Of a stretch of 34,066 nt of DNA, positions 1,494-26,275 are shown one piece after another; the first letter of the stretch is position 1; each line of letters opens with the position of its first letter. The DNA is from a virus. Lineage: Duplodnaviria; Heunggongvirae; Uroviricota; Caudoviricetes. The notes beneath the pieces are model-generated. The model searched no databases. It was not told the DNA's origin and saw only the letters and a program-made list of their open reading frames with translations. Position numbers and translations under genes: made by a program. The stretch covers positions 1 to 34,066 of IMG/VR virus record IMGVR_UViG_2541047909_000004, one strand, 5' to 3'.

Positions 1494-3844
1494 TTAATAC
1501 TCTCCCCCATTTGCGCATCAGTTAATTCTTTATGCCAGAGACGAAGATTTCTCAAATGGCCGAATAGATGACGAGTTCCCGATGTGGCTTGACCTCCAAT
1601 TCGAATAAAGGTCCGTGTTTTTACGCCCGTCCACTCCGTTTTCATAGTTTTAGTAGCCTCACCGTTAGAAACTACTCGTTTAGTACCATCAGAATAAATA
1701 TTAAAACCACCAATGAATTTTCGAACATCAGTTCGACCAGCAAACACACTAGAAACGTAAGTACTTGTCGACGCTTTATAAGTTTGCATATAAAGCTGAC
1801 CGTAATATTTCTCAGTTGTGTTAAAAGCGTATGTAATTGACTCAATAGGTGGCACACCAGAAAAATCAAAAATACGCGGTGCTACATTAGGAGGAATATC
1901 GCCCCAATTTCTATTAACCTCGACAAGACACGTAAGCGGTCTATTATAGATATTATTTTCAGTTGGGATCGTCACCATATCACTGGAGCGGGTTGCGGGT
2001 GCAGTTGTCGTAATAACAAAAGATGAAGCACATCCGCCGTTTTCAAATTGTGGTGTTGCAAGGTAAATATAATCTCCCGCTTCAGTTATACCACCTTTTT
2101 TCGGCGCATACTGAATCATTGCGCCAATTAAGGTTTCACCTTCAACAGCTTCTATAGTTGCCTCATAGAAAATCCACCCTGTAACCGGATCTTTAGTTGC
2201 AGTAGCTGCTATTCTATTGGCTGCCCCGCCAGTTTTTTCTATTATCAGAGTTCCGAAAGTTAAATAAGCATCTCCTAAAAATGTATAAACCGACCCATCG
2301 TATTTTTCAAAACGCAAACGACAACGAAGACCATCAGGAGCTTTAACCCTGCATGAAACAGTGCAATACTTATTATCGCCACTAACATCAATCCCCCGGG
2401 ATGCACTGCATGTATGCAGACTAAGTGCAGATGATTGTCCTGTCATATTATCTTTTGTTCGCATTTTGGCATATGAAAAACCAAATTCATCAACACCATT
2501 ATTAGTTTTATCGATATTGCTGGTACTCGTCCATTCAGCGGGAGTATTGGATTTAACAAAATAGTTAGTGCGCTGTCCTTCAATCAATAAACCTTCTTTT
2601 TCAAATCGTGGCTCATCAATTTTAGCAACACTAAATACGCCTGATTTATTGATATATGTGGCAGTTGATGCGCGTTTAAACTTAACAACCTTGTCGCCAG
2701 GCATCGTTATTTCATCATCACCAATAACAATTTTTTTATATGACGGCGAAAAGCCCGTAATCATATCCAGTGAATCGTTAAACGGTATCCACACATCAGG
2801 CAGTGGCTGTAAGACATATTTATACGGCTCTGCTGCCTGACTTGCATACTCTCTGGCTGCGTCTTCACTTGCTTTAGCTGCTGTCTGGCTTGCTGCCGAT
2901 GCTTTCGCCGAGTTCGCCGCTGCAGTCTCGCTTGTCTTTGCATTGGTTTCACTGGTTTTTGCTGCTTTTTGACTGTTGGCTGATGCAGTGGCAGAAGCAG
3001 CCGCCGCGCTTGCAGAACCAGCTGCAGCACTCTCGCTTTGGGCTGCTGCATCCTGACTGTTTTTCGCCGCAGTTTCGCTGGCTTTGGCATTCGTTTCGCT
3101 GGTCTTCGCTGCCGTCTGGCTGTTAGCCGCAGCAGTTGCTGATCCAGCTGCTGAAGTCGCAGAACCGGCTGCCGCGCTCTCGCTTTGGGCTGCTGCAACC
3201 TGGCTGTTTTTTGCCGCAGTTTCACTGGCTTTGGCGTTCGTTTCGCTGGTTTTCGCTGCCGTCTGGCTGGACTTTGCGTTGGTTTCGCTCGTCTTTGCGG
3301 CTGTCTCGCTATTTTTCGCGTTGGTTTCTGATTTTTTGGCTGCTGTCGCGGAGTTTGCCGATGCAGTCTTTGAGGTCGCTGCCGCCTGTGCACTATTAGC
3401 TGCATTCGTTTCTGAGGTTTTCGCCGCGTTCTTCGATGATGCCGCTGCAGTTTCGGATTTCTTTGCCGCCGCTGCGCTCTGAGAGGCGGCTTCAGCGTTG
3501 CGTGCCGCTTCTTCCACCATTTCCTCAAAACGACGCAATGCCTCCGGCATGACATCATCTTCCGTCATGGCACCGAGAAAATCATTCAGCGTCCCCGGCT
3601 TAGAATCTTCATACACGGTGATGGTCCCGGCATGTGAAGGCGGAAAACCTTCAACCAGCAGGATAACGCTGTACTGGCCATACTCAACATCCATACTGTA
3701 ACGCCCGGCTTCATCCGGATTTTCTGAGGCCACCGTGTTTACCACAACCGTGGTGCTGTTACGTTTTGCTTTCAGCTGGATTGAGCAGTTCTGTACCGGT
3801 TTTCCTGTGCCGTCTTTCAGTACACCTGAAATCTTTACTGCCAT
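1490..3844 (-). CDS. stf: Side tail fibre protein (lambda Stf-like) with long Ala/Ser/Thr-rich repeat region
   Basis: 784 aa; N-terminus MAVKISGVLKDGTGKPVQNC... matches the lambda-type Stf N-terminal domain; central K-x-S-E-T-x-A heptad-like repeats. Confidence 0.85.
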   Translation of the reverse strand: MAVKISGVLKDGTGKPVQNCSIQLKAKRNSTTVVVNTVASENPDEAGRYSMDVEYGQYSVILLVEGFPPSHAGTITVYEDSKPGTLNDFLGAMTEDDVMPEALRRFEEMVEEAARNAEAASQSAAAAKKSETAAASSKNAAKTSETNAANSAQAAATSKTASANSATAAKKSETNAKNSETAAKTSETNAKSSQTAAKTSETNAKASETAAKNSQVAAAQSESAAAGSATSAAGSATAAANSQTAAKTSETNAKASETAAKNSQDAAAQSESAAAGSASAAAASATASANSQKAAKTSETNAKTSETAAANSAKASAASQTAAKASEDAAREYASQAAEPYKYVLQPLPDVWIPFNDSLDMITGFSPSYKKIVIGDDEITMPGDKVVKFKRASTATYINKSGVFSVAKIDEPRFEKEGLLIEGQRTNYFVKSNTPAEWTSTSNIDKTNNGVDEFGFSYAKMRTKDNMTGQSSALSLHTCSASRGIDVSGDNKYCTVSCRVKAPDGLRCRLRFEKYDGSVYTFLGDAYLTFGTLIIEKTGGAANRIAATATKDPVTGWIFYEATIEAVEGETLIGAMIQYAPKKGGITEAGDYIYLATPQFENGGCASSFVITTTAPATRSSDMVTIPTENNIYNRPLTCLVEVNRNWGDIPPNVAPRIFDFSGVPPIESITYAFNTTEKYYGQLYMQTYKASTSTYVSSVFAGRTDVRKFIGGFNIYSDGTKRVVSNGEATKTMKTEWTGVKTRTFIRIGGQATSGTRHLFGHLRNLRLWHKELTDAQMGESIK
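2880..3480. repeat. Tandem repeats inside stf: ~21-bp periodic units plus a ~150-bp near-perfect duplication
   Basis: DNA block around 3025-3120 is repeated at about 3175-3270; produces spurious ORFs in several frames on both strands. Confidence 0.8.
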
Positions 3845-9900: not shown

Positions 9901-10663
9901 TCTTCTCCTCCTCTGTTGATTGTCGCAGCCCGGATTCAAATGCCGCAGCCGCCCAGGCGGGCGGTTTAAGACCAGCCGCACGGCGCTCCATCGTTTCACG
10001 GACCTGCTGGGCAAAAATTTCCTGATAGTCGTCACCGCGTTTCGCGCACTCTTTCTCGTAGGTGCTCAGTCCGGCTTCTATCAGCATCACCGCTTCCTGA
10101 ACTTCTTTCAGACCATCGATGGCCATACGACCGGAGCCTATCCAGTCGCAGTTCCCCCAGGCACTGCGGGCTTCCTGAAAGCTGAAGCGCGCTTTTGAAG
10201 GTAACGTCACCACGCGGCGAACGATGGCCTCTTCCAGCCAGCACAGAAACATCTGGCTCGCCTGACGGGATGCGACGAATTTTCGCCGTCCCATAAAGTG
10301 CGCCCACGACTCGTTCGCGCTGGCCCGTGCCGTGGAGTAGCTCATCTGGGCGTAATTCCGGGAAAGCTGCTCATACGAGACACCCAGCCCGGCAGCGATA
10401 TACCGCAGCAGTGACTGCTCAAACACGGAGTAGCCGTTATCCGTGTCCTGAGCCGTCTGCAGGTTCAGTGAGTCACCCGGCATCAGGTGCGGCACTTTTG
10501 CGCCTCCCAGCCGGACCGGTGCGGCGGAGTAATACGCGGCAATTTCACCAATCCAGCCGGTCAGCCTTTCCCGCTGCTCCTGACTGTTCGCGCCCAGAAT
10601 AAAATCCATCGCTGACTGCGTATCCAGCTCACTTTCAATGGTGGCGGCATACATCGCCTTTAT
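9881..10663 (-). pseudogene. B: Portal protein B, C-terminal fragment (about residues 273-533)
   Basis: ...KAMYAATIESELDTQSAMDFILGANSQEQRERLTGW...EEEKSDSRAA matches the lambda portal C-terminus; homology stops at about 10663 where unrelated AT-rich DNA begins. Confidence 0.85.
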
Positions 10664-11098
10664 GAAAAGACAGGAAAAAATAAAATTTAAAAACAGTACA
10701 TTACGAATGCTCAGACCTATCGTTTAAAGGAGTCGCAATACACACTGCAATACACGATTATTTATAAGATGAGCGGCATCCGTCATAAAGCTGGTGGATG
10801 CTTTTTCTATGCATATATGCACAGTTTTAGTGGGCGTTAATGTCGATATAGGGATCCCCATATCGAGATTGGATACCTGGCTTTTTTCCGGTTAACCTTT
10901 AATCAGGCTGGTGGGCTTTACCTGTTTTGTATGAGTGGTCATCATGACCATGTCATAACAAAAACCCCATATTCGTGGTTTTTCTGTGTCGGGCTATTCT
11001 GTCGTTGCTGTGCTGATTTGACTGGTGGGCTGAATCATCATTACGGCGATGCAGCTATGTAGACGTTCCGGCCTCCTCAAATTGAGGATTGTGGAAGA

Positions 11099-11225
11099 AT
11101 CAATGGGTTAGTCTTACTTTCCCGACATCCCCCAATGGGGGTTTTCGAAACAATCAATAGCTTAGGCTTACTTCCCCGATTTCCTGCATTGCAGGTTTTC
11201 GAAATAATCAATGGGTTAGGCCATC
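11099..11225. repeat. Two and a third tandem 54-bp units, each containing a 5-bp-stem hairpin followed by GTTTTCGAAA
   Basis: Unit 1 (11099-11152) and unit 2 (11153-11206) align over their length, with stems CCCCCAATGGGGG versus CCTGCATTGCAGG; partial third unit at 11207. Confidence 0.7.
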
Positions 11226-11469
11226 GTGCAATTTTGCACTTTGCCAGCCAGCGCAATGTCGCGTTATCAGTCCTCAGATGTGAGGGATGTAGCCAGCTTT
11301 TCCCCCAGTGGGGGATATCCAGCACCGACGGCTTAACTGTGCGTGCCAGCACAAGGTAGCCTTGAACTACTTACTGCATCCCATCTTACAGGCCGTGCCT
11401 TCCTGCTTAACTTTTTGCAATGCAACAAGTCAGCCAGCGCAATTTTGCGTTATCGGGAATATCAGCAAG

Positions 11470-11751
11470 TTACCGCCGCAATCGTTCCGGCTTCTTCCAC
11501 TGGTAAGTATTTTTCGCGCTCTCCCTCCGTTGTTGAGAACGGCGACGATATGCCAGCAACTCAAGGACTCTTGTTCGTATGTTGCGCATATCCACGCCGT
11601 TAAGCTCAATACCGTCACGGCGCATCACCTCAGCCACTACACGCACATAATTATCTGCGGTCACGCTGTCCGGCTGCGTGGCCTGTTCGTCATGCTGCTT
11701 GCTGATTCCACAAGCACGGCGGATTAATCGCAGTATTTCGGATTCAGTCAT
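11470..11751 (-). CDS. Small basic protein (93 aa) downstream of terS-like gene, function unknown
   Basis: ORF starting 11 nt after the terS-like stop; no clear SD; Arg-rich C-terminus. Confidence 0.45.
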   Translation of the reverse strand: MTESEILRLIRRACGISKQHDEQATQPDSVTADNYVRVVAEVMRRDGIELNGVDMRNIRTRVLELLAYRRRSQQRRESAKNTYQWKKPERLRR

Positions 11752-11762
11752 AGCGTACTACG

Positions 11763-12305
11763 TTACTTATCTTTATTCGGCTGCAACTTATCCGGTACGT
11801 TTCCGGCAGTTTCCATCAGATAATCGGACAGCATCAGCGGTATGTTTTCGTCAAGTTTTGCGCATGCGTTACAGGCTCTGATAACTTCTTTTTTCAGTCC
11901 ATCCAGCATAGACGGCTTCATGTCGGGAAACTTCCTTGTCATGGCAAGCGGCAGGCTGTCCATGATTGAAGAAATCTGACTCGCCAATTTTGAAAGCACG
12001 TATATACAAAACGCTGTATCAATAACGTCGCCGCGTTCGCGCTCGTTTTTAAGCTCCTGCGCCTCTGCCTGTGCTGTCAGCAATCTGATCCTGACTCGTA
12101 GGAGTTCATCATCATCAATCTCGCCTTTGTCGTCTGTAATCTGGTTAATTGCATTGCTAACCCGATTGTCTATTACGCTGGCAACATCATAAAACGCCTC
12201 GCGGCCTTTACGTTCAACGGGAGTCACTCCCCACTTGTCGAACGCTGTCGCACTTACACGGCAGCTTTGCGCCATGTTTTTTTTGTTCATCAGGTGCGAT
12301 TTCAT
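11763..12305 (-). CDS. Terminase small subunit homologue (Nu1-like), second copy in the window
   Basis: ...LLTAQAEAQELKNERERGDVIDTAFCIYVLSKLASQISSIMDSLPLAMTRKFPDM... parallels Nu1 ...LTRAQADAQELKNARDSAEVVETAFCTFVLSRIAGEIASILDGIPLSVQRRFPEL...; start uncertain (ATG at 12305, 12290 or 12275). Confidence 0.75.
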   Translation of the reverse strand: MKSHLMNKKNMAQSCRVSATAFDKWGVTPVERKGREAFYDVASVIDNRVSNAINQITDDKGEIDDDELLRVRIRLLTAQAEAQELKNERERGDVIDTAFCIYVLSKLASQISSIMDSLPLAMTRKFPDMKPSMLDGLKKEVIRACNACAKLDENIPLMLSDYLMETAGNVPDKLQPNKDK

Positions 12306-12438
12306 CAATATCCCCACTTAAGTAATGTTTCAGGTTGGTGTATTGGCTTTATCTTTTCCTTTTTATTCATAGAGATAGAGCGAGCAACAAAACCACCACC
12401 AGCACCCGAAAAAGGCTCATAAATAGCGAAAACCCGCG

Positions 12439-12450
12439 AGGTCGCCGCCC
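12439..12450. other. Second cosN-like site (AGGTCGCCGCCC) within a ~65-bp block near-identical to the prophage cos
   Basis: 12418-12482 matches 18063-18127 except GTAGCCTACCGG versus GTAACCTGTCGG; sequence between cosN and the adjacent terS gene is unrelated between the two copies. Confidence 0.8.
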
Positions 12451-12506
12451 CGTAGCCTACCGGATCGCCGGAAAGGACCCGCCAGCCAGAACGGGCCCTA
12501 ATTTCA

Positions 12507-12890
12507 TCAACCAATCAACTTATAGCGACCATCCCGTGCATTGCGACGTACACGCTCAATCTTGAGGCATAGCGCCGCATCTGGCTTTTTTGGGACAGGT
12601 ACGCGGCAATATTCAGAAGATCGAGGAATATTGTTTATCCAGTCGATCACTTCACTTAAATACCAGGCCTTACGCCCTTCCGTAACCTGTACGCGTTCGG
12701 GGAACTCTCCGCGAGCCTCAAGGTTTAGCAATGTGCGACGGCTAAGGGTAGTAAGTTCCATCACCTGATTCATATCAACAAGGCGTTCACTTAAACGCAT
12801 TTTGTCAGCAATAGCCTTTAATTCCTCTACTGCTGGATCCGGATACATCATTTCGGCAATTGGCTTAAGGTCATTGTAATGATTCTGCAT
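12507..12890 (-). CDS. AlpA-like helix-turn-helix regulator (127 aa)
   Basis: Central motif ...LTTLSRRTLLNLEARGEFPERVQVTEGRKAWYLSEVIDWI... resembles the AlpA/excisionase-type HTH; SD AAGGGGGAT before the ATG at 12890. Confidence 0.6.
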   Translation of the reverse strand: MQNHYNDLKPIAEMMYPDPAVEELKAIADKMRLSERLVDMNQVMELTTLSRRTLLNLEARGEFPERVQVTEGRKAWYLSEVIDWINNIPRSSEYCRVPVPKKPDAALCLKIERVRRNARDGRYKLIG

Positions 12891-14510: not shown

Positions 14511-14787
14511 TTAAAACGGTATATTATCGCCGTACGGATCATCATTCCCCGACTGTTGTTTTGCCCTGTTCAGTGCGTCAGTGGCCTGCCCCTGCTGGCC
14601 TTTTTTGCCGCCCGGTCGCGCCGTTCGCGCACTGATTACGCTGTCTGCGATAACCTGCCAGCCCCGCCGCGTTTCGCCGTTCTGGCCTGTCCACTGGCTT
14701 ACCTGCATGTTACCCGCCACGCTCACCAGTTCGCCTTTGTGGTGTTTTGCCAGTGCGTCGGCCTGTCTGCCAAACGCCAGGACGGAT
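14511..14787 (-). pseudogene. ssb: Single-stranded DNA-binding protein (SSB) C-terminal fragment
   Basis: ...GELVSVAGNMQVSQWTGQNGETRRGWQVIADSV...DDPYGDNIPF with the SSB-type acidic tail; N-terminal OB-fold half missing, cut at the junction with B. Confidence 0.65.
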
Positions 14788-18083: not shown

Positions 18084-18095
18084 AGGTCGCCGCCC
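18084..18095. other. cosN cohesive-end site of the prophage (within lambda-like cos)
   Basis: AGGTCGCCGCCC (reverse complement of GGGCGGCGACCT) flanked by lambda left-end and right-end sequence, about 180 bp upstream of Nu1. Confidence 0.85.
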
Positions 18096-18489: not shown

Positions 18490-18850
18490 ACATCCCGGTT
18501 TCTTCCACCATCGCACCGGAAAAGCGACTATGAGGGTAACCCTGCGTCTGTCAGCACAGTAAAACCCGGTGTGCATCGTTTTTGATTATTCCCGCACACT
18601 CACGCAGAAGGAATTCCCCGTCGGGCTACGGTCATGGTTAATGCGGGAATACGGCGACGATACAGCGCAGCTAAAAGGGTAATGGACAGATAGAGCGGTT
18701 TATTTCATTCCACAGGATTCTGAGTGCCCCCCCCTCCTCCAATAGGCTGAGCATCCACCTATATAGTTTTAATTTTCATCAATCCATTTAACTATCGTTT
18801 AATTGTTGTCACATAGGATTCTGCCGTTTTTAACAATGCAGGATAATAAG

Positions 18851-19144
18851 ATGAAAAAAATGTTGTTTTCTGCCGCTCTGGCAATGCTTATTACAGGATG
18901 TGCTCAACAGACGTTTACTGTTGGAAACAAACCGACAGCAGTAACACCAAAGGAAACCATCACCCATCATTTCTTCGTTTCGGGAATTGGACAGGAGAAA
19001 ACTGTTGATGCAGCCAAAATTTGTGGCGGCGCAGAAAATGTTGTTAAAACAGAAACCCAGCAAACATTCGTAAATGGATTTCTCGGTTTTATTACTTTAG
19101 GCATTTATACTCCGCTGGAAGCGCGTGTGTATTGCTCACAATAA
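18851..19144 (+). CDS. bor: Bor lipoprotein (serum resistance)
   Basis: MKKMLFSAALAMLITGCAQQ... lipobox LITGC; 97 aa; opposite strand to late genes as in lambda. Confidence 0.9.
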   Translation: MKKMLFSAALAMLITGCAQQTFTVGNKPTAVTPKETITHHFFVSGIGQEKTVDAAKICGGAENVVKTETQQTFVNGFLGFITLGIYTPLEARVYCSQ

Positions 19145-20508: not shown

Positions 20509-20934
20509 AAGCTGTGTGACGAAGTAACCACTCTTAACAGCATAACCAATTTTTTACGTACGTAAACTACTAAATGATATTTGTGAGAATGCCACCGAGT
20601 GTTCAAAACACCACCACAAATACATAAGAAAACTTCAACAAATAATCAGTTAATAATTTCCGATGTTATTTTTAGTTTGTTTAAATTAAGCTAAAGAATT
20701 ATAGAGCACTTATAAATAAGTGCCATTAATATAAATTAGCTAATAGATTTATTTTTGTTCAGACAAGAGCCATGAATAGGATTAGATAGAAAAGGTTCAG
20801 ATAAAAATAGAGATCTACTTCACAAATTAAATGAGAAACTAAAACTTACATCTTGAAATAATCACATTGATTAGATGAATATTTATCGCGCAGTGACATC
20901 ATTTTTTAATAATAGTTCAAAAAAAGGGCGTACA

Positions 20935-22017
20935 ATGAAAAAATTAACAGTGGCAATTTCTGCTGTAGCTGCATCAGTACTGATGGCGATGTCTGCTCAG
21001 GCAGCTGAAATTTATAATAAAGACAGTAACAAGCTGGATCTATACGGGAAAGTTAATGCCAAGCACTACTTCTCCTCTAATGATGCAGATGATGGTGATA
21101 CTACTTATGCCCGTCTTGGCTTCAAAGGTGAAACCCAAATCAACGATCAACTGACTGGTTTCGGTCAGTGGGAATATGAATTCAAAGGCAACCGTGCTGA
21201 ATCTCAAGGTTCTTCCAAAGACAAAACCCGTCTTGCATTTGCAGGCCTGAAATTTGGTGATTACGGCTCCATCGATTACGGCCGTAACTACGGTGTAGCA
21301 TACGACATCGGTGCGTGGACTGACGTTCTGCCAGAATTCGGTGGTGATACCTGGACCCAAACAGATGTGTTCATGACTGGTCGCACTACTGGTGTTGCAA
21401 CTTATCGTAACAACGACTTCTTTGGTCTGGTCGATGGCCTGAACTTTGCTGCTCAGTATCAGGGTAAAAATGACCGCACTGACGTAACTGAAGCCAATGG
21501 TGATGGTTTCGGTTTCTCCACTACTTATGAGTATGAAGGATTCGGCGTGGGTGCAACCTATGCTAAATCAGATCGCACTGACGGTCAGGTCGCCTATGGT
21601 AAGAGCAAATTCAATGCCTCCGGCAAAAATGCGGAAGTATGGGCTGCAGGCCTGAAATATGATGCGAACAATATCTATCTGGCTACCACATATTCTGAAA
21701 CTCAGAATATGACCGTTTTTGGTAATAACCATATTGCAAACAAAGCACAAAACTTTGAAGCAGTAGCACAATATCAGTTTGACTTCGGTCTGCGCCCATC
21801 TGTTGCTTACCTTCAGTCAAAAGGTAAAGACCTTGGTGTTCATGGTGACCGAGACTTAGTCAAGTATGTCGATGTCGGTGCTACTTACTACTTTAATAAA
21901 AACATGTCTACTTTTGTTGATTACAAAATCAACTTAATTGACGATAGTAAGTTTACCAAAACAGCTGGTATTGATACCGACGACATCGTCGCTGTAGGTC
22001 TGGTTTATCAGTTCTAA
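20935..22017 (+). CDS. nmpC: Outer membrane porin (OmpC/OmpF family; NmpC/Lc-like phage porin)
   Basis: 360 aa with signal peptide [38 protein letters not shown] start of mature porin and C-terminal ...VGLVYQF. Confidence 0.85.
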
Positions 22018-26109: not shown

Positions 26110-26275
26110 AGTTTTTTTATCTGACGGATCATGTTTTGATTTTACTGACGGATCCCCACCAGATTCTGACGGGTGAAAACCCGCTTTTTTGCCAGATTTC
26201 GACGCATCAAATTTTGACGGGTCAGATTTTGATGCGTCAGATTTTGACGGGTCAGAATCTGACAGTTGAGAAAAT
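26110..26275. repeat. Iteron-like array: several direct repeats of TGACGGGTCAGA / TGATGCGTCAGATTT-type units next to an AT-rich stretch (candidate replication origin)
   Basis: About 18-bp periodic units CAGATTTTGACGGGT / CAGATTTTGATGCG between 26200 and 26265 plus CTGACGGATC repeated at 26121 and 26145. Confidence 0.6.

Follow-up and report, generated by a model that had tools for sequence, protein, structure and literature searches.

What are the tandem 54-bp units in this DNA, whose flanks agree and whose dyads differ, and to which element do they belong? They lie in a stretch of 34,066 nucleotides (the window, meaning the whole of the DNA analysed). The original prediction, made from the letters of the window, offered three functions for the units: an origin, a protein-binding array, or tandem terminators. 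Of these, the protein-binding array gives the best fit, and the units are most likely docking sites rather than RNA hairpins or terminators. We set out the host element before turning to the units.

The window DNA is E. coli chromosome. In a closely related genome, window positions 10600-11800 fall inside a 10.8-kb element inserted, in the same orientation, in the portal gene (lambda-B-like) of a lambdoid prophage. The genes of this element encode an integrase, AlpA, a Bro-N protein, a D5-type primase and SSB, and further a lambda-E-like capsid protein, a D-like decoration protein, a second AlpA-like protein, a Nu1-like protein and a 93-aa protein. The integration, Bro, replication and late zones are all present in an intact relative (L001). 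From the window copy a 7062-bp deletion has removed int through part of SSB, plus the start of the portal fragment. The host element is a helper-embedded PICI, and the window copy is a deleted remnant of one. Helper-embedded PICIs were described by Tommasini, Mageeney & Williams 2023 (PMC10111431), who placed a doubled TGTATTGC motif 81 bp upstream and 132 bp downstream of the attP centre. The present element agrees with theirs in its position in a lambda-B-like portal gene, its co-orientation and the doubled motif; it differs in that the 54-bp array, Roi and IHF sites in the arm are not mentioned in PMC10111431. The landmarks of this end of the element are as follows.

10653..10660, strandless: att core ATCGCCTT at the satellite/portal-gene junction, with the satellite on the right, placed by comparison with lambda B

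10735..10755, minus strand: doubled GCAATACAC motif, the same as the published attP motif of helper-embedded PICIs, about 75-100 bp from the core

11470..11751, minus strand: last satellite gene (93 aa, phrog_1561), which adjoins the arm in the lambda-type satellites examined

11763..12317, minus strand: Nu1-like small-terminase/Rpp-like gene, whose C-terminal half alone matches Phage_Nu1

12439..12450, minus strand: the satellite's own cosN GGGCGGCGACCT, an exact match, upstream of the Nu1-like gene

The array sits in a non-coding arm of about 800 bp between the last gene and the att junction; the 93-aa gene takes the same position in a capsid-forming satellite. Several candidate functions could be rejected on position. 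Since the satellite has its own cosN, 1.2 kb from the array, the array is not cos. Integrase arm sites were rejected because the attP motif is found at 10735-10755, the array is 415-570 bp from the att core, and it persists with integrases that are only 51-54% identical. Origin iterons, and with them the origin of the original prediction, found no favour either: the primase gene is about 4 kb away in the intact relative, and PICI origins have been mapped next to the primase in the literature.

The array itself is longer than was first thought. An ungapped repeat search finds three complete, in-register copies (11068-11121, 11122-11175 and 11176-11229), with a dyad-to-dyad spacing of exactly 54 bp, and TRF reports a 54-bp tandem of 2.3 copies at 11098-11221 (80% match). 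The original prediction was right that a 54-bp tandem repeat exists, but it counted two full units and a partial third, whereas there are three full units starting about 30 bp further upstream; its stems are our stems 2 and 3, and the first stem (CCTCA/TGAGG) was missed. The parts of the array are these.

11068..11229, plus strand: array of three tandem 54-bp units, each made of a 13-bp dyad, a 10-nt spacer and an IHF-consensus box, and each an 18-codon piece of roi

11075..11087, strandless: dyad 1, CCTCAAATTGAGG, perfect (6+1+6) and identical to the class D roi dyad (helix KRTIETL)

11098..11110, plus strand: IHF core consensus box 1, AATCAATGGGTTA, an exact match to the consensus WATCAANNNNTTR

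11129..11141, strandless: dyad 2, CCCCCAATGGGGG, a perfected form of the class B roi dyad CCCCCAATGGTGG (helix KQSIERL)

11152..11164, plus strand: IHF core consensus box 2, AATCAATAGCTTA, an exact match

11183..11195, strandless: dyad 3, CCTGCATTGCAGG, identical to the class C roi dyad (helix KISIERL)

11206..11218, plus strand: IHF core consensus box 3, AATCAATGGGTTA, an exact match that opens the block best conserved across satellite arms

11302..11314, strandless: stand-alone dyad CCCCCAGTGGGGG, a degenerate fourth unit that has lost its spacer and aligns with a full unit of locus L125

The last of these is the similar hairpin that had been seen at about 11300. One sequence had been said to follow each stem; GTTTTCGAAA does stand behind stems 2 and 3, but stem 1 is followed by ATTGTGGAAG.

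By consensus match the three boxes are candidate IHF sites. They make up three of the four WATCAANNNNTTR matches in the whole 34-kb window, both strands counted, and they are co-oriented on one strand in a 54-bp phase, about five helical turns. A check for an A/T-rich tract found TTTTCGAAA upstream of boxes 2 and 3 and ATTGTGGAAG upstream of box 1. An alignment of 17 distinct satellite units is invariant at the positions that IHF specifies (ATCA, T43 and A45) and variable at the four N positions and in the dyad sequence. An architectural element for IHF alone could be imagined, in which three phased bends compact the arm for excision and integration, packaging or replication, without any helper protein. 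Three perfect, phased boxes would suit such an element, and IHF sites are well known from lambda attP and cosB. However, at 415-570 bp from the att core the array lies beyond the published arm motifs (-81, +132), it is kept alongside unrelated integrases, its distance from cosN is 1.2 kb, and conserved dyads that match particular alleles would be left unexplained. We therefore consider an IHF-only element quite improbable.

The source of the units is found in phage genes. Phage genes annotated as Roi or antirepressor contain internal stretches to which the units are 90-96% identical. In a search of 5426 complete E. coli genomes, some of the unit matches lie within lambdoid-prophage genes of the nin region that are annotated as KilAC-domain antirepressors; these nin-region antirepressor genes are roi, and are so annotated in HK97, 933W and HK629. 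The Roi protein matches Pfam ANT and, weakly, Phage_pRha. A repeat period of 54 bp corresponds to 18 codons, and over 11063-11359 the roi frame is still open; there the array reads RPPQIEDCGRINGLVLLS / RHPPMGVFETINSLGLLP / RFPALQVFEIINGLGHRA against ...RNPPMVVFEKINNLGLLR in roi. This open plus-strand frame is explained by descent from roi codons. A translated small protein was rejected, there being no Shine-Dalgarno-like sequence ahead of the sole ATG (11135). Since the array is outside any roi coding sequence and no roi gene was found in the window or the resident prophage, the units are derived copies and not the gene's own site.

Roi of phage HK022 reportedly binds within its own gene, at a site closely linked to an IHF site, and IHF is said to stabilise the binding. 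In HK022 roi we find CCTGCATTGCAGC, 10 nt, and then AATCAATGATTTA, which is the arrangement of the satellite unit: dyad, 10-nt spacer and IHF consensus. The satellite module is different in that it is non-coding and triplicated, with the dyad of a different allele in each copy, and no Roi is encoded with it; binding to it is predicted. The roi gene of HK022 is a subject of Clerget & Boccard 1996 (J Bacteriol 178:4077).

Dyads in roi come in classes, each with its own recognition helix in the N-terminal domain. Those that matter here are listed below.

Class B: helix KQSIERL, dyad CCCCCAATGGTGG, peptide PPMVV

Class C: helix KISIERL, dyad CCTGCATTGCAGG, peptide PALQV

Class D: helix KRTIETL, dyad CCTCAAATTGAGG, peptide PQIEV

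A further cassette: helix KVSIERL, dyad CCTGCAATGCAGG, peptide PAMQD

The three array dyads are thus of classes D, B (perfected) and C. Recognition helix and dyad are about 12 codons apart in roi. In the roi cassettes the two change together, and the KRTIETL/CCTCAAATTGAGG pairing was seen in four different flanking contexts; at that distance, the association of dyad type with helix type could be plain linkage. The dyad scores at least 5 of 6 in 89 of 90 distinct roi 5′ alleles from viral contigs (47 of them perfect), and about 0.1% of other roi positions score as high once three recurrent sites are set aside. Amino acids of Roi are swapped non-conservatively (A/Q, Q/E, P/V) with the symmetry kept. 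At dyad position 6, a wobble position, nearly all roi alleles have A (CCA, GCA, CAA), which argues for a constraint at the DNA level on a pair that no hairpin could form. The IHF box is intact in every roi class sampled. For part of the sample the box belonged to the retrieval pattern; the HK022-type alleles were gathered by peptide instead, and in this respect they are free of bias. A locus search seeded with the Roi protein returned close relatives only (at least 73% identity), no solved structure was found among Roi relatives, and a 15-base pattern scan of genome contigs gave only chance matches in unrelated taxa.

The compensatory stem differences of the original prediction hold across relatives. 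In an alignment of 17 distinct non-coding units from related elements, to which units with a dyad score of at least 5 of 6 were admitted, 99% of the cells pair, against 30-51% in slid controls, and double-sided changes are present at five of the six pairs. On four of five measures none of 500 shuffles matched the observed value, and on the fifth, the count of further pair types, 9 of 500 did. A scan of 120 viral loci plus L001, L003 and L004, for which the dyad was not part of the retrieval pattern, accepted units on their TTCGAAA spacer whatever the dyad score; all satellite units found in it scored 5 or more.

Selection on structure had been proposed from the stems. The symmetry is indeed kept through double changes, but the conserved structure is more likely a dyad in double-stranded DNA than a hairpin. 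Even the innermost pair, A6/T8, on either side of a single central base, is symmetric. Because a hairpin cannot use this pair, the folds are weak and the orientation of the unit relative to satellite genes is inconstant, a dimeric protein reading double-stranded DNA is favoured. The array hairpins are weak, at -6.2 to -8.5 kcal/mol for stems of 5-6 bp and 4 U. For the roi alleles of HK022 and of class B, the commonest, the values are only -2 to -3 kcal/mol. The fold z-score of the 186-nt region is -2.3 on the plus strand and -2.0 on the minus strand. An Rfam RNA family was rejected, since covariance models gave no match at gathering score in the whole window and none at E <= 1 in 10600-12600.

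These figures bear directly on tandem terminators. Weak intrinsic terminators or insulators on the plus strand might stop transcription into the satellite end, or end perC in EcCIMP1-like islands. They would make sense of UUUUCGAAA behind stems 2 and 3; all three hairpins are present in the plus-strand minimum-free-energy fold; and in L004 and L249 the single unit stands about 70 bp past the perC stop codon, sense, with a G-U pair tolerated on that strand only. However, with stems so short and only 4 U, none was called by a terminator scan that asks for a stable G+C-rich stem followed by a U run of at least 5 of 8. Stem 1 lacks a U run altogether, and a z-score of just -2.3 is similar on the other strand. 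The same module is also found sense within roi coding sequence, where the HK022 and class B alleles fold weakly, the innermost symmetric pair cannot form in a hairpin, and no plus-strand promoter or gene is upstream in the helper-embedded configuration. Terminators are accordingly very unlikely here, and this part of the original prediction gains no support.

Non-coding satellite dyads are more symmetric than the commonest phage roi allele. The class B dyad has been perfected in two opposite ways, GGTGG to GGGGG here and CCCCC to CCACC in the PICI EcCICFT073 (CCACCAATGGTGG), which argues that symmetry itself is either selected in the non-coding copies or corrected in them by templating.

Further small dyads had been noted near the array, and these too are real. 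They belong to a second type, resembling a dyad in phage rha genes.

11226..11239, strandless: Rha-type dyad GTGCAATTTTGCAC, 7 nt past box 3, to be compared with GCGCAATTTTGCGC inside phi80 rha

11245..11268, plus strand: degenerate motif copy CAGCCAGCGCAAT.T.GCGTTATC, a Rha-type module with the dyad broken

11431..11472, plus strand: Rha-type unit with dyad CGCAATTTTGCG (11438-11449), 10 nt, and TATCAGCAAGTTA (11460-11472), an IHF core with one mismatch

A 16-nt sequence, CCAGCGCAATTTTGCG, is common to window positions 11434-11449 and phi80 rha, a gene whose annotation reads "DNA synthesis inhibition in IHF- hosts". The IHF-dependent rha genes of phi80 and P22 are a subject of Henthorn & Friedman 1995. 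In phi80 rha, GCGCAATTTTGCGC follows the recognition helix at the position that corresponds to the roi dyad. P22 rha, with a 4-bp dyad (CGCA-TTTT-TGCG), adds the Roi-type spacer (TTTCCGAAAA) and a perfect IHF box (AATCAATAACTTA). The satellite copies differ from both in being non-coding and in having slightly different dyads (as GTGCAATTTTGCAC). Phi80 Rha was rejected as the source of the Roi-type unit because phi80 rha is without that unit, though it shares the Rha-type dyad. ST64B sb41 and an Stx2 phage keep CGC AAT TTT GCG (RNFA); in the rha of phage P13368 it is CTC AAT TTT GAG (LNFE, CCTCAATTTTGAGG), a compensatory and non-conservative change. This diversity is drawn from the rha homologues of five hand-picked phage records, all of which follow the phi80 pattern; a search seeded with phi80 Rha had given only relatives of about 100% identity. 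The comparison suggests that intragenic operators with compensatory, amino-acid-changing substitutions are general to this antirepressor family. The arm as a whole resembles an assemblage of dyad-plus-IHF modules drawn from two branches of that family.

How widely is the unit distributed? Of 5426 complete E. coli genomes, 705 have it, each at 1-5 places and together at 842. The original prediction had considered that the units might be copies of a REP or MITE element spread through the host genome. Dispersed repeats of the REP, BIME or MITE kind were rejected, since the contexts inspected were without exception phage roi genes or satellite arms. RIP/RIB elements (BIME-type, an IHF site flanked by REP palindromes) do share the combination of a repeated palindrome with an IHF site; the array differs from them in having no REP similarity and in occurring, at the places examined, in phage or satellite DNA throughout.

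Among satellites the array is kept with different integrases, late-gene sets and insertion sites. It follows the last gene in all examined relatives of the window satellite, including those with integrases 51-54% identical and other insertion sites. Related arrays are present in a capsid-forming PICI, in a lambda-type PICI near yejO (with CAGCCGTTGGCTG) and in an O157:H7 satellite beside clpS, which has a further stem TTCGCC-GCT-GGCGAA. EcCICFT073 has three units with perfect IHF boxes plus a stand-alone dyad, CCACCAATGGTGG. EcCIMP1-like islands beside dinD carry a single unit about 70 bp after perC and co-oriented with it.

Orientation also weighs on the idea of an antisense decoy, by which read-through RNA of the minus-strand operon, complementary to about 50 nt of roi mRNA in three allele classes, would silence the helper's roi. 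In those lambda-type, capsid-forming and O157 satellites that were examined, the array does lie antisense to the operon, identical runs with living roi alleles reach about 37 nt, and coverage of several alleles would suit the purpose. But the unit is co-oriented with island genes in EcCIMP1-like elements, a perfected dyad is less complementary to the class B allele that is commonest, and nothing in this idea explains why the IHF consensus positions are the most conserved. We regard it as highly improbable.

A plainer alternative gives the array no function. As recombination scars, the units would be roi and rha fragments left by exchange with helpers and then duplicated in tandem, with palindromes that were inherited or kept by quasi-palindrome templating. 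Units that are near-identical to living phage alleles make recent recombination a possible origin. An 18-codon period in an open roi frame (11063-11359) and the 90-96% identity of each unit to an existing phage allele are both expected of scars; the L004 copy retains about 22 nt more of upstream roi sequence; and capture of helper DNA by satellites has been reported in the literature. Against scars stand the constant position of the array despite different integrases and late zones, and the state of its sequence: in a non-coding setting, IHF-consensus positions and dyad symmetry are intact and other positions drift, and the asymmetric class B dyad has been perfected in two independent ways. 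Three different alleles in precise 54-bp phase are also hard to obtain by neutral duplication. Scars without function are, in our judgement, unlikely.

The anatomy, roi homology, IHF consensus, conserved symmetry and distribution across satellites are direct observations, and on them we build, with moderate confidence, the reading that the array, in the non-coding arm at the end of the satellite, acts in cis as a docking site for proteins, namely IHF together with Roi (or Rha) of the helper. Host IHF would bind at the three co-oriented boxes, 54 bp apart, and bend the DNA sharply there. Dimeric proteins of the Roi family, made by the helper early in lytic growth, would bind the adjacent dyads. 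The AlpA-like and Nu1-like proteins that had been put forward as binders gain no support here. Since the three dyads are the putative operators of three Roi classes and the small dyads are Rha-type, the satellite may engage the regulators of several kinds of helper. The output might be a sensing of the helper's lytic programme, or, as a decoy, a titration of Roi and Rha away from the helper; a purely architectural role is also conceivable.

Some observations count against a docking site. No promoter-like site was found adjoining the array, and hence no regulated output. The resident prophage is without roi. Lambda mobilises EcCICFT073, about 1000-fold less well than does phi80, which carries rha. 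To our knowledge, lambda carries neither roi nor rha. Roi or Rha is therefore not an obligatory inducer.

A broader form of the docking reading is possible but doubtful. It holds that arms of Gram-negative PICIs carry a multi-specificity operator array copied from the Roi/Rha genes of helpers, each operator with its IHF site, by which the satellite would read or sabotage the early lytic regulator of its helper whatever the class of that regulator. If true, the Roi/Rha operator, being intragenic and about 12 codons past the recognition helix, would let specificity and DNA target diversify as one cassette of about 100 bp.

The same logic has a parallel in the P2-P4 system, where Cox boxes at the P4 late promoter PLL reportedly bind Cox, a regulator of the helper P2. 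In both cases, if the analogy is sound, a satellite would hold an array of sites for a regulator that acts on the helper's genome as well. Neither the proteins nor the sequences are related, and the P4 sites are at a defined promoter, whereas none was identified here.

The host element, the IHF sites and the intragenic site of Roi were each already known separately. New, within the literature searched, is the tandem multi-allele copy of the Roi site on PICIs with matching Rha-type dyads. In the PICI literature searched the helper induces alpA, by an inducer that is not named there. The switching on of Gram-negative PICIs by their helpers is unsettled, and the array offers a candidate interface, defined in sequence, between Roi/Rha, IHF and the satellite. 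Interest also returns to the "IHF-dependent growth" phenomenon of Roi and Rha, which is poorly understood; in IHF- hosts these proteins are inhibitory. The idea is directly testable, because genetic tools exist for EcCICFT073 and this element carries the array, at the following position.

NC_004431.1, about 1388660-1388900: EcCICFT073 array

Across six distinct arms, the best-conserved block consists of the last IHF box, the GTGCAAWTTTGCAC dyad and CCAGCCARCGCAAT.

A second perfect 13-bp dyad, ATGGCAATGCCAT, is present in 66 of the 90 alleles of roi, the HK022 Roi-family antirepressor gene, where it spans codons 6-10 (nt 17-29); the main dyad follows 113 bp downstream. Examples are as follows.

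L002 2395-2407: second roi dyad in one locus
L246 2672-2684: second roi dyad in another locus

This dyad could be a second, candidate operator; since it is invariant, covariation is uninformative there. Genes of the related Rha family carry an intragenic dyad shortly after the recognition helix, as seen when phage P13368 (L420) is compared with phi80 rha (L336), L418 and L421. Here the compensatory changes alter amino acids, with CGC AAT TTT GCG (encoding RNFA) in one version and CTC AAT TTT GAG (LNFE) in the other. The putative operator-inside-gene layout may be general to the Phage_pRha family.

An array of the same kind as that in the window is found in EcCICFT073, with three units bearing perfect IHF boxes, two of them spaced 54 bp apart (L422 3660-3900, corresponding to about 1388660-1388900 of NC_004431.1). 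Because EcCICFT073 is an experimentally studied satellite, it offers a natural system for functional tests of the array.

The non-coding arm of the window's satellite also has the following features.

10839-10870: 32-bp near-palindrome, AATGTCGATATAGGGA/TCCCCATATCGAGATT, then CCTGGCTTTTTTCCGGTTAA...CAGGCTGGTGGGCTTTAC
10775-10802, plus strand: hairpin (stem of 11 bp) resembling a terminator
10786 to 10757, minus strand: promoter-like site, the only one in the arm, directed at the att core

The near-palindrome is kept in the satellite arms of L003 (two copies), L125 and EcCICFT073. In the circular form of the satellite, the promoter-like site would read towards int.

Satellite and prophage each have an exact lambda-type cosN, and the surroundings of the two are 95% identical across ~66 bp.

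12439-12450, minus strand: cosN of the satellite
18084-18095, minus strand: cosN of the prophage

The Phage_Nu1 match in the satellite's Nu1-like protein is restricted to the C-terminal half, as would be expected of an Rpp-type packaging redirector.

Comparison with the intact satellite of the closely related E. coli genome L001 (24190-31251) shows that the window's copy is missing 7062 bp at 14787/14788. The deletion removed int, alpA, Bro-N, the primase gene and part of SSB, and reaches into the portal N-terminal fragment. Excision is no longer possible for this satellite, and the portal gene of the prophage is therefore broken for good.

The resident prophage has two tandem repeats, the second called by TRF, and two cargo genes identified from the annotation of L001.

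26193-26256: 15-bp tandem repeat CAGATTTTGACGGGT, 4.3 copies, early region
3225-3328: 42/21-bp tandem repeat, tail region
18803-19144: Iss/Bor-type serum-resistance lipoprotein gene
20875-22017: OmpC-like porin gene

The CAGATTTTGACGGGT repeat looks like replication-origin iterons.
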